IMG/VR virus record: IMGVR_UViG_3300045049_000125 | Location: 9,840 to 73,839 of that record | Length of the DNA stretch: 64,000 nucleotides | Source: a virus | Reading direction: 5' to 3' (one strand) | Shown: positions 7,461 through 46,143 of the stretch, one piece after another | Layout: every line of letters begins with the position of its first letter | Position numbering within the stretch: the stretch's first letter is position 1 | Notes under the pieces: generated by a model | Databases searched by the model: none | What the model was told of the DNA's origin: nothing | Seen by the model: only the letters and a program-made list of their open reading frames with translations | Made by a program: the position numbers and the translations under genes

Positions 7461-7589
7461 TCAAGCGATGGATAGCACTACTTCGCTATATCCGCTTTCC
7501 AACTTCCATTTTGCGAATGCGGCAGCGTTGACCCAATCGTCAAAAACTTGTGAACTGTTGTCCCAAGACACTTTCCACTTTTTGTTCAT
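7461..7589 (-). CDS. Small protein (42 aa), missed by ORF track
   Basis: MNKKWKVSWDNSSQVFDDW...; ATGA coupling with upstream ORF; its stop lies in the next -35 box. Confidence 0.55.
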   Translation of the reverse strand: MNKKWKVSWDNSSQVFDDWVNAAAFAKWKLESGYSEVVLSIA

Positions 7590-7813
7590 GATCGTTCGTC
7601 CAATGAGTGTTCTTTGTCGCATTGTCGCATAGCCTTATCCATGGTTCTATGCGTAACGATAGTTCCCGGCGCCCATGTCGTTCCTGAACGACGATACGCG
7701 GCCGAATGCCATACCCCATTGATCTTCCACACGTAATAACGGTGGTCTTCATCCGGAACGGCAATGTTCATCCGGTATTTATCCGGAGGGACAGGCTTAA
7801 ATTGAAGCTCCAT
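7586..7813 (-). CDS. Hypothetical protein
   Basis: MELQFKPV... ORF. Confidence 0.5.
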   Translation of the reverse strand: MELQFKPVPPDKYRMNIAVPDEDHRYYVWKINGVWHSAAYRRSGTTWAPGTIVTHRTMDKAMRQCDKEHSLDERS

Positions 7814-7830
7814 TCTTACACCTTGGTTAT

Positions 7831-7858
7831 AAAAAGGGCGGCACACGGCCGCCCTTTT
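7831..7858. terminator. Intrinsic terminator downstream of the adhesin gene
   Basis: AAAAGGGCGG...CCGCCCTTTT. Confidence 0.8.
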
Positions 7859-7880
7859 AGATTACATCAGTGCTATTCAA

Positions 7881-8960
7881 TTACCAAGCGTACCCGGCCG
7901 AAACCTTGACCGCGAGGTGATGCCCGAACCCATAGGAATCGGACAGCGCTCGGCTGATGCCTCCACCGATGTTGAACTGTTCGTTGACCTGATAGCCGAA
8001 CGCCAGACCCATGGCCGAGGCGCCATTGAACGATCCGAAGCCGCCGCCCACCCACTTCTGACCAGGAGCCAGTTGCGGAACCTGCGGAATCGCCATGGCC
8101 TGCGCCGTGCCGATGCTGGCGAAGCGAATGGCCTTGGTCAGGCCGGCGGCCACCTGTCGATCAGTGTAGGCGTTCGCCCAATTCAGGGTCTCAGCGGATG
8201 CGGACGCCACGCGGCTGTCGGTATATGCGGACGCGCTGGCGACGGCCGAGGCAGTTGCAGCAGTGGTCGCTGCGTTCAGTTGGTCCACGGTAACGGCGTC
8301 CGGAGCATTCTGACCTGCCGGACCCTGCGGACCTGCGGGGCCTTGCGGGCCGGTATCGCCCTTGGGGCCAGCCACGCCGGACTGCGCCAGAATATCCACG
8401 CGGGTCGAAAGCGCCGAAACCTGCGAACTCAGACCATTGAACTGAGCCATGTTCACGGCGTCACCATCATTGATGCCGGCGGCCACGTGGATCAGGCGCC
8501 GGTCACCGTACGTTGTGGAACCGAAAGATACGACATTGGACAATCCGTCATCGGACGATCCGAAACCGAACACGCCAGACATGGTGCCACTGGCCCAATT
8601 GAATGCGCCCACCGATGTGGTGTAATCGCCCGTGGCGCTCGACTTGTAGCCGATAGCCGAGCGGTACGCTTCGCCGGCATCATGCGCAGTGGTGCTGATC
8701 GTACCGGTATAGGCATACGCGCCCAGGGCGGTATCGCCCCGACCGATGGCCCATGCGGAATAGCCGACTGCCGTGCCGTAGTCGCCGGCCTTGGCGATGC
8801 GTGGTCGCGTGACGCCATCCGGGCCAGTAACGTTCATGGTGGGCGTGCTGGCGCCGATGGCGACAGACTGCGGAGTGGTGGGAAAACCTACCGGAATGGT
8901 CTGAGCGAACGCGCCCAGGGCCACGAAGGCCATGACTACGGAAAAGAGAATGCGTTTCAT
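7881..8960 (-). CDS. YadA-family trimeric autotransporter adhesin with collagen-like insert
   Basis: Signal peptide; SVAIG/TAVG/TALG/SAIG head repeats; neck RRLIHVAAGINDGDAVN; GPxGxx repeats; AYTD stalk; beta-barrel anchor ending SAGYAW. Confidence 0.9.
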   Translation of the reverse strand: MKRILFSVVMAFVALGAFAQTIPVGFPTTPQSVAIGASTPTMNVTGPDGVTRPRIAKAGDYGTAVGYSAWAIGRGDTALGAYAYTGTISTTAHDAGEAYRSAIGYKSSATGDYTTSVGAFNWASGTMSGVFGFGSSDDGLSNVVSFGSTTYGDRRLIHVAAGINDGDAVNMAQFNGLSSQVSALSTRVDILAQSGVAGPKGDTGPQGPAGPQGPAGQNAPDAVTVDQLNAATTAATASAVASASAYTDSRVASASAETLNWANAYTDRQVAAGLTKAIRFASIGTAQAMAIPQVPQLAPGQKWVGGGFGSFNGASAMGLAFGYQVNEQFNIGGGISRALSDSYGFGHHLAVKVSAGYAW

Positions 8961-15962: not shown

Positions 15963-16979
15963 TCAACCCGGCCATTTCCAGAATTCGGCCAAAATGGGCG
16001 GTTGTGCGAATCCCCAGCGGTGCGCAATCCCCATGGCATTCAGGCCGCGAGCTGTGGCCTGAATCAGTCGTTGGGCGAGTGTACGCTGTGCCATTCGGCG
16101 CCACTCGTCTCCCTTCTTGCGAGCGACATCTCCCGTCTCAGGGTGCAGACCCATATCACGCAGGAAGACGATCCCGCCTGTGGGAAGCGTGATTCGCAGG
16201 CCGGCAACCTGTGGAGTAAGGCGCACGTTTTCAAACGTGATTCGATGCGCCGGGCGGTTTTCGCCATCCTTCACCGGACCCACATCGATGGTGACTGGTT
16301 GCGCCGAATCCAGCGCGATTTTAGACGCGAGATACACATTTTCGGTGAACATCTCTCCATGCACCTGCGCCAGTATCGTGGCATTGCCCGGACCTTGCCA
16401 ACCGGCCGATTCGATGCCATGGGCATCCATGTGCATCGCCTCGTCAAAATCGTAACCTAGCGCTTGCAGGATGTGCATACCTTTCAAATGGGAAGTGTTC
16501 ATGAGCCATGCGAACGTCCACGCCACGCCACCCCAATCAAGGTTTGCTGCGAACGTCCCCGGCTCGCCGCCGGCCTTGATGTAGGCGCGGATACCGTTCA
16601 CCCACGCCTGTGCGGCCGGATCGTGATCTACGCCCGCGCGAACCAGTCCCTCGGCGTCCACGTGGTCGCATTCGTACGTGATTGCCAGCAAATCCAGGCT
16701 CCCCACCTGATATCCCTTCAATCGATCACAGAGAACCGAGCAACCCGTATCCATGTCCGGATTGATGAACCAAATCTTGTCGGACACGTTCATGAGTTTG
16801 CGCGCCAGTTCGTTGCCGAGGCGTGTGGGGAAATCCACCTTGTTCACGCGCCGAAGATCACTCAGGCGCGACAGGCGCGGGCCGAACTCTTCAAAGGGCA
16901 ATACCTGTTGGAGCGGATACATCGGATAGATGCCCGAATCGGCGTATTCGATGTAATCGGGCGTGACATTGATGAACAT
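15963..16979 (-). CDS. Degenerate family-A (SPO2/APSE-like) DNA polymerase domain, predicted inactive
   Basis: Colinear remnants: DLLAIT (motif A), KGMHILQALGY (motif B), LRITLPTG, RLIQATAR; motif C HDE absent. Confidence 0.5.
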   Translation of the reverse strand: MFINVTPDYIEYADSGIYPMYPLQQVLPFEEFGPRLSRLSDLRRVNKVDFPTRLGNELARKLMNVSDKIWFINPDMDTGCSVLCDRLKGYQVGSLDLLAITYECDHVDAEGLVRAGVDHDPAAQAWVNGIRAYIKAGGEPGTFAANLDWGGVAWTFAWLMNTSHLKGMHILQALGYDFDEAMHMDAHGIESAGWQGPGNATILAQVHGEMFTENVYLASKIALDSAQPVTIDVGPVKDGENRPAHRITFENVRLTPQVAGLRITLPTGGIVFLRDMGLHPETGDVARKKGDEWRRMAQRTLAQRLIQATARGLNAMGIAHRWGFAQPPILAEFWKWPG

Positions 16980-16980
16980 T

Positions 16981-17517
16981 TTAAAATCCTCGGTAGATGA
17001 GTCCACGGAATGTGCCACATTCCTGGCAAAACCAACAGTGTTTAGGGTTCTCGGCTCCGCATGGCGTGTATTCGCCTTCCTGAGCAATCAGCCCCATGGC
17101 GCGCGAGCGCATCGGGAAGGGCTCTCCGCAGCGCCACGTGCGCCGCGCAGGCTCAAGCCCTAGAATTGGCTCGGGCTCCATCACGTGGACGATAGGACGC
17201 GGCATGGCGATCTTCTCGAAGTACCGGCGCACGCCCTTCCATCGCTTGTCGCTGTCCACGCGGTGCATGTTGTAGCGCTGATGGACGATGCACACATCCA
17301 CCGGACCCATGCGGCGCTTGTTCGCGCTGTAGTGGCTCAGGGCCATGACAAGCACTTGGTCACGATGGTCGCAGCCTGCCGACAGATTGCGCTTAGGTGG
17401 ATGCGCAAGGATGTGGTCTGCGAGCATGGCCGCGTCTTGTGGAAACGCTTCGAGAATCAGCACCCGTGCGTTAGGGCGCTGATTCAAAACGTTCGCTAGG
17501 ATTGTCATGATTTCCAT
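16981..17517 (-). CDS. Degenerate SF2 (RadD/YejH-like) helicase domain fused to a Zn ribbon
   Basis: Aligns by eye to RecA1 of 44356..46143 with DEAH replaced by HQRY and no Walker A; ends CGAENPKHCWFCQECG. Confidence 0.5.
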   Translation of the reverse strand: MEIMTILANVLNQRPNARVLILEAFPQDAAMLADHILAHPPKRNLSAGCDHRDQVLVMALSHYSANKRRMGPVDVCIVHQRYNMHRVDSDKRWKGVRRYFEKIAMPRPIVHVMEPEPILGLEPARRTWRCGEPFPMRSRAMGLIAQEGEYTPCGAENPKHCWFCQECGTFRGLIYRGF

Positions 17518-17520
17518 GGA

Positions 17521-17751
17521 TCATTTCCAGCGCGCACCCGTCCGACCGCTGATTTTATGCTGCAAGATCATTTCGTAAGTTTCCCCGTTGTGCAGCTCCA
17601 CCACGGCGCGGGAATCGTGCTCACCCGTCTCGCCCAACCAGTTGAGCGCGTACTCAATGGCGTCCGTCTGTTCGTAGTCAGGATTGCCGCGAACGATGCT
17701 CTGCTGCGCGCAGAGCGTTCCGGCGCTGTTATAAAACTTGACCTTAATCAC
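17521..17751 (-). CDS. Hypothetical protein
   Basis: AAGGAG RBS. Confidence 0.55.
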   Translation of the reverse strand: MIKVKFYNSAGTLCAQQSIVRGNPDYEQTDAIEYALNWLGETGEHDSRAVVELHNGETYEMILQHKISGRTGARWK

Positions 17752-18693: not shown

Positions 18694-19596
18694 TTACATT
18701 CCGAAATACTTTTCAAAGCAAATAGGGCCAATGCCTCGGTCGATGCTTTCCCCGTTGGTCAGCTCGCGACCGCAGCAGGAACACACGCCGAAGCGCTTGC
18801 CGTAGGCGATGGCCGATTGTGCGGGATCGGCGGTGACGGCCACGATTTCCGCTGTCTGCTCGGCAGTGCAGTCGCGCGTGCCCAGGAAGCGGCCGTTCAC
18901 GATCTTGCCCAGGTAATCGCCCGTGGCCTTGTGCTTCACGTACACGGCGCCTGCGTTGACGCTCTGCGCCTTGGCAAGCGAGAAGACGAATGCGTGATGC
19001 TCGCCGGCAAGGAGGATTTTCGGCGTCCGGATGCCCTTTTCCGTGGCTCGGATGAGGCTTTCCTTGATGTTCGAGACCGCGACCGCAGGCGCCTTGGCTT
19101 CGCGTTCAGCCTTGGCGGCAGCCAGCTTCGCCACGCAAGATTTAGCGGCGGCTAACTGGCGCTCCGTCAGCTCGCCGAACTTCTCGGCGGTCTCGCGCAG
19201 GCTAATGGCGAAATCGAAGTTTGAACCTGTCCACCATCGCACGATGTCCGGATGAGCGGCGCAGAACGCGGCGAATTTCTCGGCCACGGCATTCTGCTTG
19301 CGCTCCTTGGCCTTGCGCGAGGCGGCGCGGCTCTTGGCTCGCTGTTCCGGGCTGGTGGCGAATTCGAGCTTTCCCGTACCGCCGCATTTGAAGCATGTCG
19401 AACCGTGGATGCTGTAGCCACGATATCGGCCGGTGCCCATGCACTTGGGGCACTTTTCGATGTAGGGGTGCACTGCCGGTAGCGCCTTGACCTGCGTGAT
19501 GTCGGTGGGAACGCCCAGGCGCTCGGCCAGCTTATCAAGCTGGCCCACGTTAAGGCGCACATCGTCCAGGTCGTTCAGGTCGTTGAAGTCGATCAT
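18694..19596 (-). CDS. DUF6011-like protein with N-terminal DnaJ-type Zn finger
   Basis: CPKCMGTG, CFKCGGTG; C-terminal CSCCGRELT...SIDRGIGPIC. Confidence 0.75.
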   Translation of the reverse strand: MIDFNDLNDLDDVRLNVGQLDKLAERLGVPTDITQVKALPAVHPYIEKCPKCMGTGRYRGYSIHGSTCFKCGGTGKLEFATSPEQRAKSRAASRKAKERKQNAVAEKFAAFCAAHPDIVRWWTGSNFDFAISLRETAEKFGELTERQLAAAKSCVAKLAAAKAEREAKAPAVAVSNIKESLIRATEKGIRTPKILLAGEHHAFVFSLAKAQSVNAGAVYVKHKATGDYLGKIVNGRFLGTRDCTAEQTAEIVAVTADPAQSAIAYGKRFGVCSCCGRELTNGESIDRGIGPICFEKYFGM

Positions 19597-22569: not shown

Positions 22570-23271
22570 TTACTGCTCATCCCATGGCTGGTCGCCGTTG
22601 TCGATGAACTCGTCCTGCTGCTCCACAAACTGCTCTTCTTCAACAAACTGCTCTTCCTGCACCGGACCCGGCTTCGGTGAAGGGTTCGGACGAGTCGCCG
22701 GACGAGTACGCGCGGCCTGCTGTTCGCCACCCTGAGCCTGCGCCGGGGCGCTGGTTGCCGGACGGTTGCCGAAGCCCGCCGGACGCTGCGCGGCGCCGCT
22801 GGCGGGGCGAGTCTGTCCACCGGCAGACGGACGCGACGTGCCACCCGCTGCACCGCTCGAAATCGGCTCGTAGCTGTCGATTTCGTTGCGTGCCGCATAC
22901 TTCTCGGCACCCGTCGCCGGATCGATCTGCGCGGCCTTGATCTTGACCTTGATGCGCAGCGGCTTTTCGAGAAGCTGGTCAGTGGTGGTCAGTTTCAGCA
23001 CATTGATCGCGTGGCAGATGGCCGACAGTTCGCCCTGAGCGATCTTCTGCGCTTGCTCGGATTTGTTCTCGATGTTCAGACCGGCGAAAACCACGCGGCC
23101 GTCATAATCGCCTCCGATGATCTTGAATTGCAGGTTCAGACGCTTGCCGCTGCCGTCGCTAGTGGGCTTGATTTCAGCGGTGGTAATCTTCGCGTTGTAG
23201 AGATTCGCCGGAATCGGCTCACGGCCAGTGGAAGGGGCAACGGTGGTCGCGTCGAAGGAAAGAAGTGCCAT
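22570..23271 (-). CDS. DUF669-family ssDNA-binding protein
   Basis: EPIPA..Y..I...EIKPT..G.G..L.L.FKI..G.Y.GR; acidic C-terminal tail. Confidence 0.85.
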   Translation of the reverse strand: MALLSFDATTVAPSTGREPIPANLYNAKITTAEIKPTSDGSGKRLNLQFKIIGGDYDGRVVFAGLNIENKSEQAQKIAQGELSAICHAINVLKLTTTDQLLEKPLRIKVKIKAAQIDPATGAEKYAARNEIDSYEPISSGAAGGTSRPSAGGQTRPASGAAQRPAGFGNRPATSAPAQAQGGEQQAARTRPATRPNPSPKPGPVQEEQFVEEEQFVEQQDEFIDNGDQPWDEQ

Positions 23272-44355: not shown

Positions 44356-46143
44356 TTAGAACGGAATGTCTTCTTCCTGGAAAGAAAGCGCTATCTCAGG
44401 GTTTTGGTACACCTGCGCCTCTTCCGTTCCGAATGCCGTTCCGTCCATGCACCAATCGAGAATGTCCGGATATTTCTTATTGACCCACACTCGAATATGC
44501 GTTGTGGTTGGAAAAAAATCAGACTCTTCAATGACTTGCTCGGACGTTGCCGGAATCGATCCCGTAGGGAATCGCTTGCGGAACCATTTGTGTGCTTTGA
44601 ATTTGGCATAGCCGTCATGTTCAAAACACAGATATTCGTGAAACACTCGAATACCGCACGTATAAGACACGTGCACCATATCGGGCTTACCGGCTTTTTG
44701 GTGGAGCTGGTAAGACGTGTAATCCACGCGGAAGATTTCAACCTGAGGCGTACCGTCCTCGCTCTCTTTGATGAGGGCATCAGAGCTGGCCCGCTTGGTG
44801 ATTTTTTCTTTGATCGGTGGCGCTGGGCACTGGCAATGCGGACAGACACGCAACGAAGCGTGATACATCGTTCGGCAACCCGTATGTTCAATGACGCCGG
44901 GCATCCATACGGCCACCGCCGCACCCGTCTGCGGGTCTTCCAGCCATGTGGCGCATTCGCGCACGGGCGCCTCACCTCCACCTTTCTGGCCTTTCTTGCG
45001 CGGGATCACGGGATCGTTGATACAGCCCAGGCGCTTGGTGTTGCCCGCGAAATCGCCCACAAGGCAATCGCGATGCAGGACGTCGGCAGGCTTCGGGCGC
45101 GTGCCACGGCCAAGCATCTGGACCCACAGGACTGCGGACTTGGTGGCACGCAGCATCATGATGTAGTCCACGCTTGGCACGTCATAGCCAGTGGTCAACA
45201 CACCCATGTTGCAGAGCGCGCGGGCTTGTCCGCTTTCAAACAGATTCTTTGCGCCGTTGTTCGTGGCAGGGTCCATGGAATCCGGATCACCGGCCGGCTT
45301 TTTACTGTGGACGCACACCGCTGGCACGCCATAGCTATTGAGCCATTGCGTGACGTCCTCCACATGCTTCACGCCCGTGCAAAACACCAACCAGTGATTG
45401 CGGTCTGCCGCCGCGTCAAGGCTTTCCTCAATGGCAGCGCGCGTGATTTCCTCGCGATTCGTGACTTTTTCCAGCTCGTCTAGCTGGAAGTCGCCGGCCG
45501 TTGTGGCAACGTCGGACGTATCGATTTGCAGATTAGTGCGCAGTGGACGCAGTGTCGCAAGCCAATCATTCGCAATGAATTCGTGGAAATCTTCAATGCC
45601 GATTTTAGAATAGCAACGATGCGTAAATAGTGCATCGCCATCATCAATATTGCCCAAGCCCTGGCGCCACGGGGTGGCAGTCAGGCCAATCACTTTCATT
45701 TTCGGGTTGGCTTTCCACAGCCCCTCGATACACCGGCGATAGCGCGTCTTTGCCTTCCAGTCCACCATGTGGGCCTCGTCAATCAGCATGATTGAGCGCT
45801 TGCCGAATAGGTGCGGCTTCTTGGCTACGGAGTCGATGCCAGCCCACAGAATGGGCGCGTCCACTTCGCGGCGATTCAATCCGGCGTGGTAGATGCCGAG
45901 CGGAGCTTGCGGCCAGATGGATAGCAGCTTGTTGGAATTCTGTTGAACCAGAGTTTCAGAATGTGTTGCACAGAAAATGTGCGAATTTGGGAACATGTCC
46001 ATATAGCGATGGACGATGCCGCCCAGCACGATGGATTTGCCCGTACCTGTGGGTAGACAGATGGTCGGATGACCCTTATTTCCGGCGCGATAGTAATCAA
46101 AGGGGGCCTGGATGGCCTCAACCTGATAAGGGCGGAGTTGCAT
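44356..46143 (-). CDS. SF2 DNA helicase (RadD/YejH-like) with Zn finger
   Basis: LRPYQ, PTGTGKS, DEAH, LTATP, LTTGYD, QMLGRGTR; acidic DIPF tail. Confidence 0.93.
   Translation of the reverse strand: MQLRPYQVEAIQAPFDYYRAGNKGHPTICLPTGTGKSIVLGGIVHRYMDMFPNSHIFCATHSETLVQQNSNKLLSIWPQAPLGIYHAGLNRREVDAPILWAGIDSVAKKPHLFGKRSIMLIDEAHMVDWKAKTRYRRCIEGLWKANPKMKVIGLTATPWRQGLGNIDDGDALFTHRCYSKIGIEDFHEFIANDWLATLRPLRTNLQIDTSDVATTAGDFQLDELEKVTNREEITRAAIEESLDAAADRNHWLVFCTGVKHVEDVTQWLNSYGVPAVCVHSKKPAGDPDSMDPATNNGAKNLFESGQARALCNMGVLTTGYDVPSVDYIMMLRATKSAVLWVQMLGRGTRPKPADVLHRDCLVGDFAGNTKRLGCINDPVIPRKKGQKGGGEAPVRECATWLEDPQTGAAVAVWMPGVIEHTGCRTMYHASLRVCPHCQCPAPPIKEKITKRASSDALIKESEDGTPQVEIFRVDYTSYQLHQKAGKPDMVHVSYTCGIRVFHEYLCFEHDGYAKFKAHKWFRKRFPTGSIPATSEQVIEESDFFPTTTHIRVWVNKKYPDILDWCMDGTAFGTEEAQVYQNPEIALSFQEEDIPF

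Follow-up and report, generated by a model that had tools for sequence, protein, structure and literature searches.

A small phage protein apparently derived from the first motor domain of a RadD-type helicase

The window analysed here is a stretch of 64,000 nucleotides from the record of a complete virus (73,839 bases with direct terminal repeats). Within a long run of minus-strand genes, a small gene of 178 codons stands at the far end of a replication/recombination module, in the order ATP-dependent ligase, C5 methyltransferase, Sak4-like protein, DUF669-type SSB, Prim-Pol/AAA_25 primase-helicase, several small ORFs, the small gene and a 338-aa gene. A DNA polymerase, a clamp-like factor, a RadD-like helicase and a Cas4-type exonuclease are encoded elsewhere in the genome. 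The full-length window stretch is present in soil and rhizosphere metagenome runs, which may represent its source sample, and no RNA run is found among the sequencing runs listed as containing it. The genes and features discussed below, all on the minus strand, are as follows, with the evidence for each in parentheses.

16981 to 17517, minus strand: the small gene, whole, 178 aa, with its stop codon at 16981-16983 (ORF list).
17167 to 17517, minus strand: predicted remnant of RecA-like domain 1 (RecA1), residues 1-117, beginning with the helix that follows the P-loop and ending with the motif III strand (hhalign, shuffle control, PDB search, AlphaFold, VIA-align).
17464 to 17478, minus strand: conserved R-P-N-A-R loop preceding the first strand (column map, PDB search).
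17272 to 17283, minus strand: H79-Q80-R81-Y82, at the position of helicase motif II (DEAH) (column map and family alignment).
17269 to 17298, minus strand: invariant D74 and N83, flanking the former motif II strand (column map and family alignment).
17002 to 17136, minus strand: putative zinc ribbon, residues 128-172, with the pattern W-x-C130-G ... C153-G-x-x-N157-x6-C164-x-x-C167-G-x-F-R-G (invariant residues, sub-threshold Pfam matches, shared spacing).
15963 to 16979, minus strand: the partner gene, 338 aa (sequence; homologous partners in loci L001 and L007).
44356 to 46143, minus strand: the SF2 helicase of the phage, 595 aa, RadD-like (Pfam ResIII and Helicase_C, phrog_16, NCBIfam RadD at E 9e-58).

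Two other products of the module have features of their own. A 300-aa phrog_4046 protein, encoded at 18694-19596 (minus strand) between the primase-helicase and the small gene, has a weak N-terminal match to the DnaJ-like zinc finger (PF00684, E 0.0078, below Pfam's cut-off) and carries a DUF6011 motif at its C-terminus. The DUF669-type SSB (22570-23271, minus strand) ends in the acidic tail ...DNGDQPWDEQ, unlike the DIPF tip of the helicase.

The ATG of the small gene is preceded two codons upstream by an in-frame TGA, so that the ORF cannot be extended to take in a Walker A motif. Upstream lies a 76-aa ORF (17518-17751, minus strand), which shares the frame of the small gene and is separated from it by its own TGA and one codon; neither a Walker A nor a family match was found for this ORF.

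The small-protein family is rare, with about 15 members. BLASTP recovered three close homologues of the window protein at 64-70% identity, and a search of 1.84 billion representatives added about 11 full-length homologues, down to 18% identity. The viral collection contains only two further loci (L001 and L007), scans of metagenome and genome collections with P0022 and a 4-member alignment gave no additional loci, and tblastn of the small protein against 50,697 deposited phage genomes gave no match. Comparison of the family with Pfam, PHROGs, NCBIfam and PADLOC likewise gave no match at usable thresholds, and the curated ResIII, DEAD and RadD models of Pfam and NCBIfam matched none of its members. 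Feature scores for the small protein in the Protein Atlas, at 0.80 or lower, serve as leads only.

All 15 members are intact ORFs of 148-187 aa that share 12 invariant positions (invariant residues include four cysteines, W128, G131, N157, F170-R171-G172, D74 and N83), and they fall into two subfamilies, one of three distant members and one of twelve nearer ones. Judging by these intact frames and invariant residues at identities as low as 18%, the gene is real and appears to be maintained by selection. The original prediction described it as a dead paralogue of the phage's own SF2 helicase. With its catalytic motifs gone, the protein may be called dead in the sense of non-catalytic, but not in the sense of a gene in decay; 15 intact frames and the invariant residues point instead to an old family under selection.

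The prediction was based on a pairwise alignment of the two window proteins, and as proof this alignment does not hold. BLASTP of the small protein against the helicase gives E 0.32, on a short segment other than the proposed register. The Smith-Waterman score of 36, compared with 33 ± 5 for shuffled sequences, is reached by 123 of 500 shuffles, and the glocal score in the proposed register (33, against 19 ± 7.7; 1.8 sd above) is reached by 28 of 500. Compared alone, the two proteins resemble each other no more than expected by chance, the score being indistinguishable from the shuffled controls, and significance comes from family profiles only.

Comparison of a profile of the 15 small proteins with one built from 28 homologues of the helicase at 44356-46143 gave a very different picture. 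With hhalign, residues 5-116 of the small family align to helicase residues 42-157 with a probability of 94.1% (E 1.2e-7), and the N-terminal domain taken separately against helicase RecA1 (residues 40-158) reaches 95.8% (E 6.8e-9), compared with 0.5% each against RecA2 and against the C-terminal part. The observed score of 55.2 lies 17 sd above column shuffles (12.4 ± 2.5, with a maximum of 20.4 in 200 shuffles), and the reversed small-family alignment scores 14.6. Both subfamilies find the same register independently, the distant three at 94.2% probability and the nearer twelve at 54.3%. It is also the register originally proposed: hhalign of the family profiles independently recovered the pairings PNARVLIL / PNSHIFCA, SAGCDHRD / HAGLNRRE and VLVMAL...VCIVHQRY / ILWAGI...IMLIDEAH, together with the further segments KRWKGVRRYFEK / TRYRRCIEGLWK and IVHVMEPEP / VIGLTATP.

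The strength of the signal varies across the family. Against the helicase profile the window protein alone is barely detectable, at 3.4 bits (E 0.003 for a single comparison); for the RecA1 profile this score ranks as the worst but five, compared with 17.7 bits for P0022, and the three distant members score best. Such a gradient, with the distant members most helicase-like and the window protein low, is what would be expected from descent from a helicase followed by drift. In a sequence search of the PDB, the 15-member profile placed E. coli RadD (6jde) at the top (E 0.0033), and a profile of the three distant members, searched against 177,635 PDB sequences, had RadD as its sole significant match (E 9.6e-5, RadD residues 43-152; the next helicase at E 0.78). 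Identity over the aligned helicase region is low, about 12% to the phage's own helicase and 11-16% across the hhalign and structural alignments. On the strength of these profile comparisons, we regard residues 1-117 of the small protein as homologous to the RecA-like domain 1 of the RadD-type SF2 helicase family.

The predicted structure points the same way. Four sequences gave an unusable AlphaFold model (pLDDT 37), and the model built with 15 sequences reached an overall pLDDT of 85.3; within residues 1-110, block means ranged from 86 to 97. Foldseek against the PDB returned almost solely SF2 helicases, all at E-values of at least 6.6e-3, with RadD (6jde_B) superimposing at an rmsd of 2.9 Å over 117 columns. 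In a VIA-align comparison with 48,161 chains, the best 50 matches were without exception first motor domains of SF2 helicases or SecA (Z 8.6-10.5); they cover model residues 1-123, with the target side beginning just past the P-loop, and RadD residues 35-160 are matched at Z 9.4 over 114 residues with 16% identity. A Foldseek search of the viral structure library gave the same SF2 picture, with no E-value reaching 0.001, and no other two-domain protein of this kind was found in that library. The RecA-like fold implied by the original prediction is thus clearly seen in the model: as predicted, the small protein has the RecA1 fold of an SF2 helicase, from which the central P-loop strand of the sheet is absent.

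Mapping of the alignment columns indicates which helicase elements have been lost and which retained. The alignment begins at helicase residue 38-40, directly past K36-S37, and the Walker A motif (G-x4-G-K-[ST]) is found in none of the 15 members. What is missing comprises the N-terminal ~37 residues with the Q motif and Walker A, the whole of RecA2 and the C-terminal domain; residues 118-178 form a linker and the zinc ribbon, with no hhalign match to RecA2 and no Helicase_C match. Within the retained region, helicase residues are replaced at motif Ia (T-H, Q-N), motif Ic (G-I-x-S-V), motif II (DEAH to HQRY, with H79-Q80-R81-Y82 aligned on helicase D122-E123-A124-H125) and motif III (T-A-T to E-P-E). 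Across the family, the motif II position holds H/N/D and then N/Q/D, with D-D kept in the three distant members only, which also retain A-P-T at motif Ia. Three specific claims made from the two sequences, namely that Walker A is absent, that the second RecA domain is absent and that DEAH has become HQRY, are all confirmed by these comparisons.

The residues common to the small protein and the helicase consensus in the column map are P15, R18, A47-G48, D53, G71, D74, an aromatic residue after motif II, L100 and P117. P15 and R18 correspond to helicase consensus P52 and R55, and R18 aligns with RadD R51. D74 corresponds to the Asp in the GHxD consensus of the phage helicases and is present in 15/15 small proteins and 19/28 helicases, and N83 is present in all 15 small proteins. 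Given the loss of Walker A, RecA2 and the motif residues, canonical ATP binding or hydrolysis and translocation are not expected from the sequence and fold, and in the absence of Walker A, a DExH box, RecA2 and any curated model match, annotation as a helicase is not warranted. We therefore describe the small protein as an apparent helicase-derived pseudoenzyme, in which descent from a helicase, loss of the catalytic residues and purifying selection are combined, its inactivity being inferred from these losses. Taken jointly, helicase descent and loss of catalysis are very likely.

The C-terminal part carries four conserved putative zinc ligands, C130, C153, C164 and C167; a further cysteine of the window protein, C161, lacks such conservation. 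Of the two knuckles, the second is canonical and the first has C153 only, with C130 lying 22 residues upstream in W-x-C-G. Pfam Zn_Ribbon_1 matches 12 of the 15 members, all below its cut-off, and AlphaFold confidence is 53-67 at residues 131-150 and 86-87 at residues 151-170. After RecA2, the helicase family has a ribbon of the form C-x2-C-x3-N-x6-C-x2-C-G, and the small protein has the same C-x3-N-x6-C-x2-C-G spacing; hhalign places C153, C164 and C167 on helicase C423, C434 and C437 (probability 41%, E 2.8e-4, 16 columns), a match that is suggestive at most, as many zinc ribbons have this pattern. In the alignment of the nearer subfamily, W128-x-C130-G131 falls on the invariant P-W-R-x-G of the helicase. 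As the helicase carries the RecA1 and ribbon pieces in the same order, loss of the 5' end, RecA2 and the 3' domain would be the most economical history. The original prediction of a C4 Zn ribbon fused to the helicase remnant can be kept as regards a putative ribbon, with its four invariant cysteines in a C-terminal position, but the ribbon was probably not fused on, as an internal deletion of RecA2 from a protein with a colinear ribbon of the same spacing fits at least as well. In the window helicase itself, the first zinc knuckle is split by a 25-residue insert between C397 and C423 (44875-44955, minus strand); its closest relative has a shorter insert of ~14 residues, and the other 26 homologues are compact, with C-x2-C in nearly all.

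Apart from the helicase at 44356-46143, the 73.8-kb genome has no ResIII match. Co-occurrence of the small gene with a RadD-like helicase is seen in two genomes (G000 and G001), and a 71,522-base contig with P0006 and P0037 probably represents a third; a helicase search of the L007 record, a 44%-complete fragment, gave no match but is uninformative on this point. Common membership of the RadD-type family, as judged from the profiles, agrees with the originally noted kinship to the phage's own helicase, but at about 12% identity and with an old family behind it, the small gene is not a recent or decaying copy. It may have arisen by duplication inside the lineage or have arrived from elsewhere. 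The last six codons of the helicase (44359-44376, minus strand) encode EEDIPF. Of the 28 phage helicase homologues, 24 terminate in D/E-D-(I/V)-P-F, the kind of tip found at the C-terminus of E. coli SSB (DDDIPF). A helicase with such an SSB-tail mimic could dock on the SSB-binding pockets of host or phage proteins; the papers searched yielded nothing on SSB-like tails of such helicases.

The second gene of the pair is closely, and apparently translationally, coupled to the first. In the window, the ATG of the partner gene follows one base after the TAA of the small gene, with GAGGA inside the last codons of the latter. In L001, where the small protein is about 40% identical to that of the window (39% by tblastn, 41% in the MAFFT alignment), a 323-aa partner homologue overlaps the small gene stop in the sequence TGATG, and the pair directly follows the primase-helicase. 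In L007, the small protein is 18% identical, and a 303-aa partner homologue overlaps it in the sequence ATGA. In three loci, with small proteins 18-41% identical, the two genes are thus either 1 nt apart or overlap by 1 to 4 nt. Their partner proteins align at 30% and 19% identity, and a block of the type G-L-R-I-T-L-P-T-G-G is common to all three. The L007 pair (7488-8923) lies away from recognizable replication genes, between a divergent cluster of small genes and the late genes, adjoining convergent lysis and tail genes. Given this position, the pair may be only loosely linked to replication and may represent a mobile cassette that serves some other purpose.

For the partner itself we found no family match, no PDB sequence match, no phage tblastn match and no Walker A. 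The possibility that it supplies the missing RecA2 was rejected, as it shows no relation to the helicase; comparison with the phage's own polymerase likewise gave no relation. Two weak hints of a family-A polymerase come from the Atlas, where its nearest models are DNA_pol_A clusters, at a TM of about 0.31 and from a poor model (pLDDT 0.36), and from phrog_7766 (PolA-like), which matches the L007 partner at 13.9 bits; Pfam DNA_pol_A has no match in the three phage records.

Overall, the best explanation of these observations is that the gene encodes a ~20-kDa non-enzymatic 'mini-RadD', proposed to act as a partner-bound accessory; we assign a probability of roughly 0.55 to this reading as a whole, and a little less than an even chance to the partner-bound accessory role. 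In this reading the small protein keeps the framework of RecA-like domain 1 between the helix that follows the P-loop and the strand of motif III, and a putative Zn(Cys4) site would join this framework to a ribbon laid out like the one that follows RecA2 in the helicase. It would be co-produced with the downstream 338-aa protein and most likely bind it, as suggested by the gene order. Docking to DNA, or to some protein also contacted by the helicase, would occur through the R-P-N-A-R loop, the A-G loop and the zinc ribbon, and the pair, standing at the end of a replication/recombination operon, would probably serve as a non-catalytic accessory or adaptor. A more elaborate version can be imagined, in which two former replisome enzymes, a P-loop-less half of RadD and a degenerate fragment of a family-A polymerase, form a two-subunit accessory that docks on acidic tails of the DIPF type (host SSB or phage helicase) and controls fork processing or recombination-dependent replication in soil phages of 60-74 kb; we consider this version rather improbable.

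Two other functional explanations were weighed against the mini-RadD reading. The small protein might be a decoy or regulator, whose domain 1 remnant binds a ...DDDIPF tail of the host SSB or the phage helicase and recruits, sequesters or switches the partners of the helicase or of the host SSB, with the downstream protein as cargo or effector. In E. coli RadD, a pocket of RecA-like domain 1 framed by R21, R49 and R145 accommodates the SSB tail (PMC10238739). R-P-N-A-R, the best-conserved N-terminal motif of the family, falls on the loop carrying RadD R49 and R51, and 24 of 28 helicase homologues, the EEDIPF-tailed window helicase among them, end in tips of this kind, so that the small protein might bind such tails. 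Yet the N-terminal helix that supplies R21, F20, L17 and T16 to the RadD pocket is absent, the equivalent of R49 is Asn, that of R145 is basic in only 6 of 15 members, and the SSB encoded by the phage ends differently (...PWDEQ), making a decoy unlikely. A second explanation places the pair outside replication altogether, as a host-takeover or anti-defence cassette, that is, a mobile two-gene module inhibiting a helicase-based system of the host by mimicry. The preservation of internal coupling in the different surroundings of L007, the position of the pair at an operon end in 3/3 loci and its absence from the 50,697 deposited phage genomes, as is often the case for accessory genes, would all fit such a module; against it, two of the three loci lie inside or at the end of a replication module, there is no PADLOC or other family match, and nothing identifies a target. 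We also regard this explanation as having a low probability.

Two further alternatives deny that the gene is a functional helicase derivative. The N-terminal domain could be a generic Rossmann-like alpha/beta domain of other origin that came to be combined with a common zinc ribbon, its likeness to RecA1 being due to chance or convergence, and it is true that the pairwise comparison is not significant, that no Pfam helicase model matches any member and that aligned identity is just 11-16%. This is largely refuted by a profile match that lies 17 sd above column shuffles and is specific to RecA1, being absent for RecA2, which has the same fold, as well as by RadD being the single significant match among 177,635 PDB sequences, by the best 50 structural matches all being SF2 or SecA first motor domains and by the helicase-like A-P-T (motif Ia) and D-D (motif II) of the distant subfamily; we give it very little credence. 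A recent partial duplicate of the phage helicase, now a functionless pseudogene in decay, would account for the loss of every catalytic motif beside a full-length relative in the same genome, but it is contradicted by 15 relatives, down to 18% identity, with intact frames and invariant Cys, Trp, Asp and Asn, by an identity to the phage helicase of about 12% and by the conserved coupling to the partner, and is hardly tenable.

If the mini-RadD reading is right, a phage helicase gene can shrink to a scaffold and a zinc ribbon and be long retained with the same partner gene. The analysis gives a name and a fold to a family that was blank in every library tested, and defines a protein pair as a candidate replication/recombination accessory; together with the SSB-like DDDIPF tail of the helicases, it suggests a network of tail-and-pocket contacts in these phages. 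Its practical weight is modest while the function is only inferred.

Among known systems, the closest is E. coli RadD (YejH; PDB 6jde, 7r7j, 8h5y), in which residues 43-152 align with residues 4-112 of the small family. RadD ZF2 is a typical zinc ribbon with C-x3-N-x6-C-x2-C spacing (PMC9049331), and the spacing in the ribbon of the small protein is identical. RadD has 586 residues, with a Walker A (K37), a DEcH box, RecA2, two zinc sites, a C-terminal domain and ATP hydrolysis, whereas the small protein has 178 residues and none of these catalytic parts, and its first zinc ligand lies 22 residues upstream in W-x-C-G. The phage RadD-like helicases of phrog_16 have the same domain 1 core in the same register, sharing the P, R, A-G and G..D residues, the Tyr after motif II and the Pro after motif III, as well as a colinear ribbon; unlike the small protein, they possess all SF2 motifs, RecA2, a C-terminal domain and the DDDIPF tail. 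The second knuckle, with its C-G-x-x-N ... F-C-x-x-C-G pattern, resembles Zn_Ribbon_1 (PF13240) and DZR (PF12773), but in contrast to generic bacterial ribbons the distant C130 stands in for the initial Cys of the first knuckle, and scores stay below Pfam's cut-offs.

Among viral pseudohelicases, we found none described that consists of just a portion of a single motor domain followed by a zinc ribbon and that is paired with a dedicated partner. The pseudohelicases Utp25 and D. radiodurans PriA keep the two-RecA-domain architecture. Yeast Utp25 and Deinococcus radiodurans PriA are reported to have lost their ATPase/helicase motifs and kept a non-catalytic role (PMC9539457, PMC4504706), and the small protein would resemble them in being derived from a helicase, stripped of its motifs and kept by selection. 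It differs from both in consisting of part of one RecA domain, in being viral and in having a dedicated partner gene.
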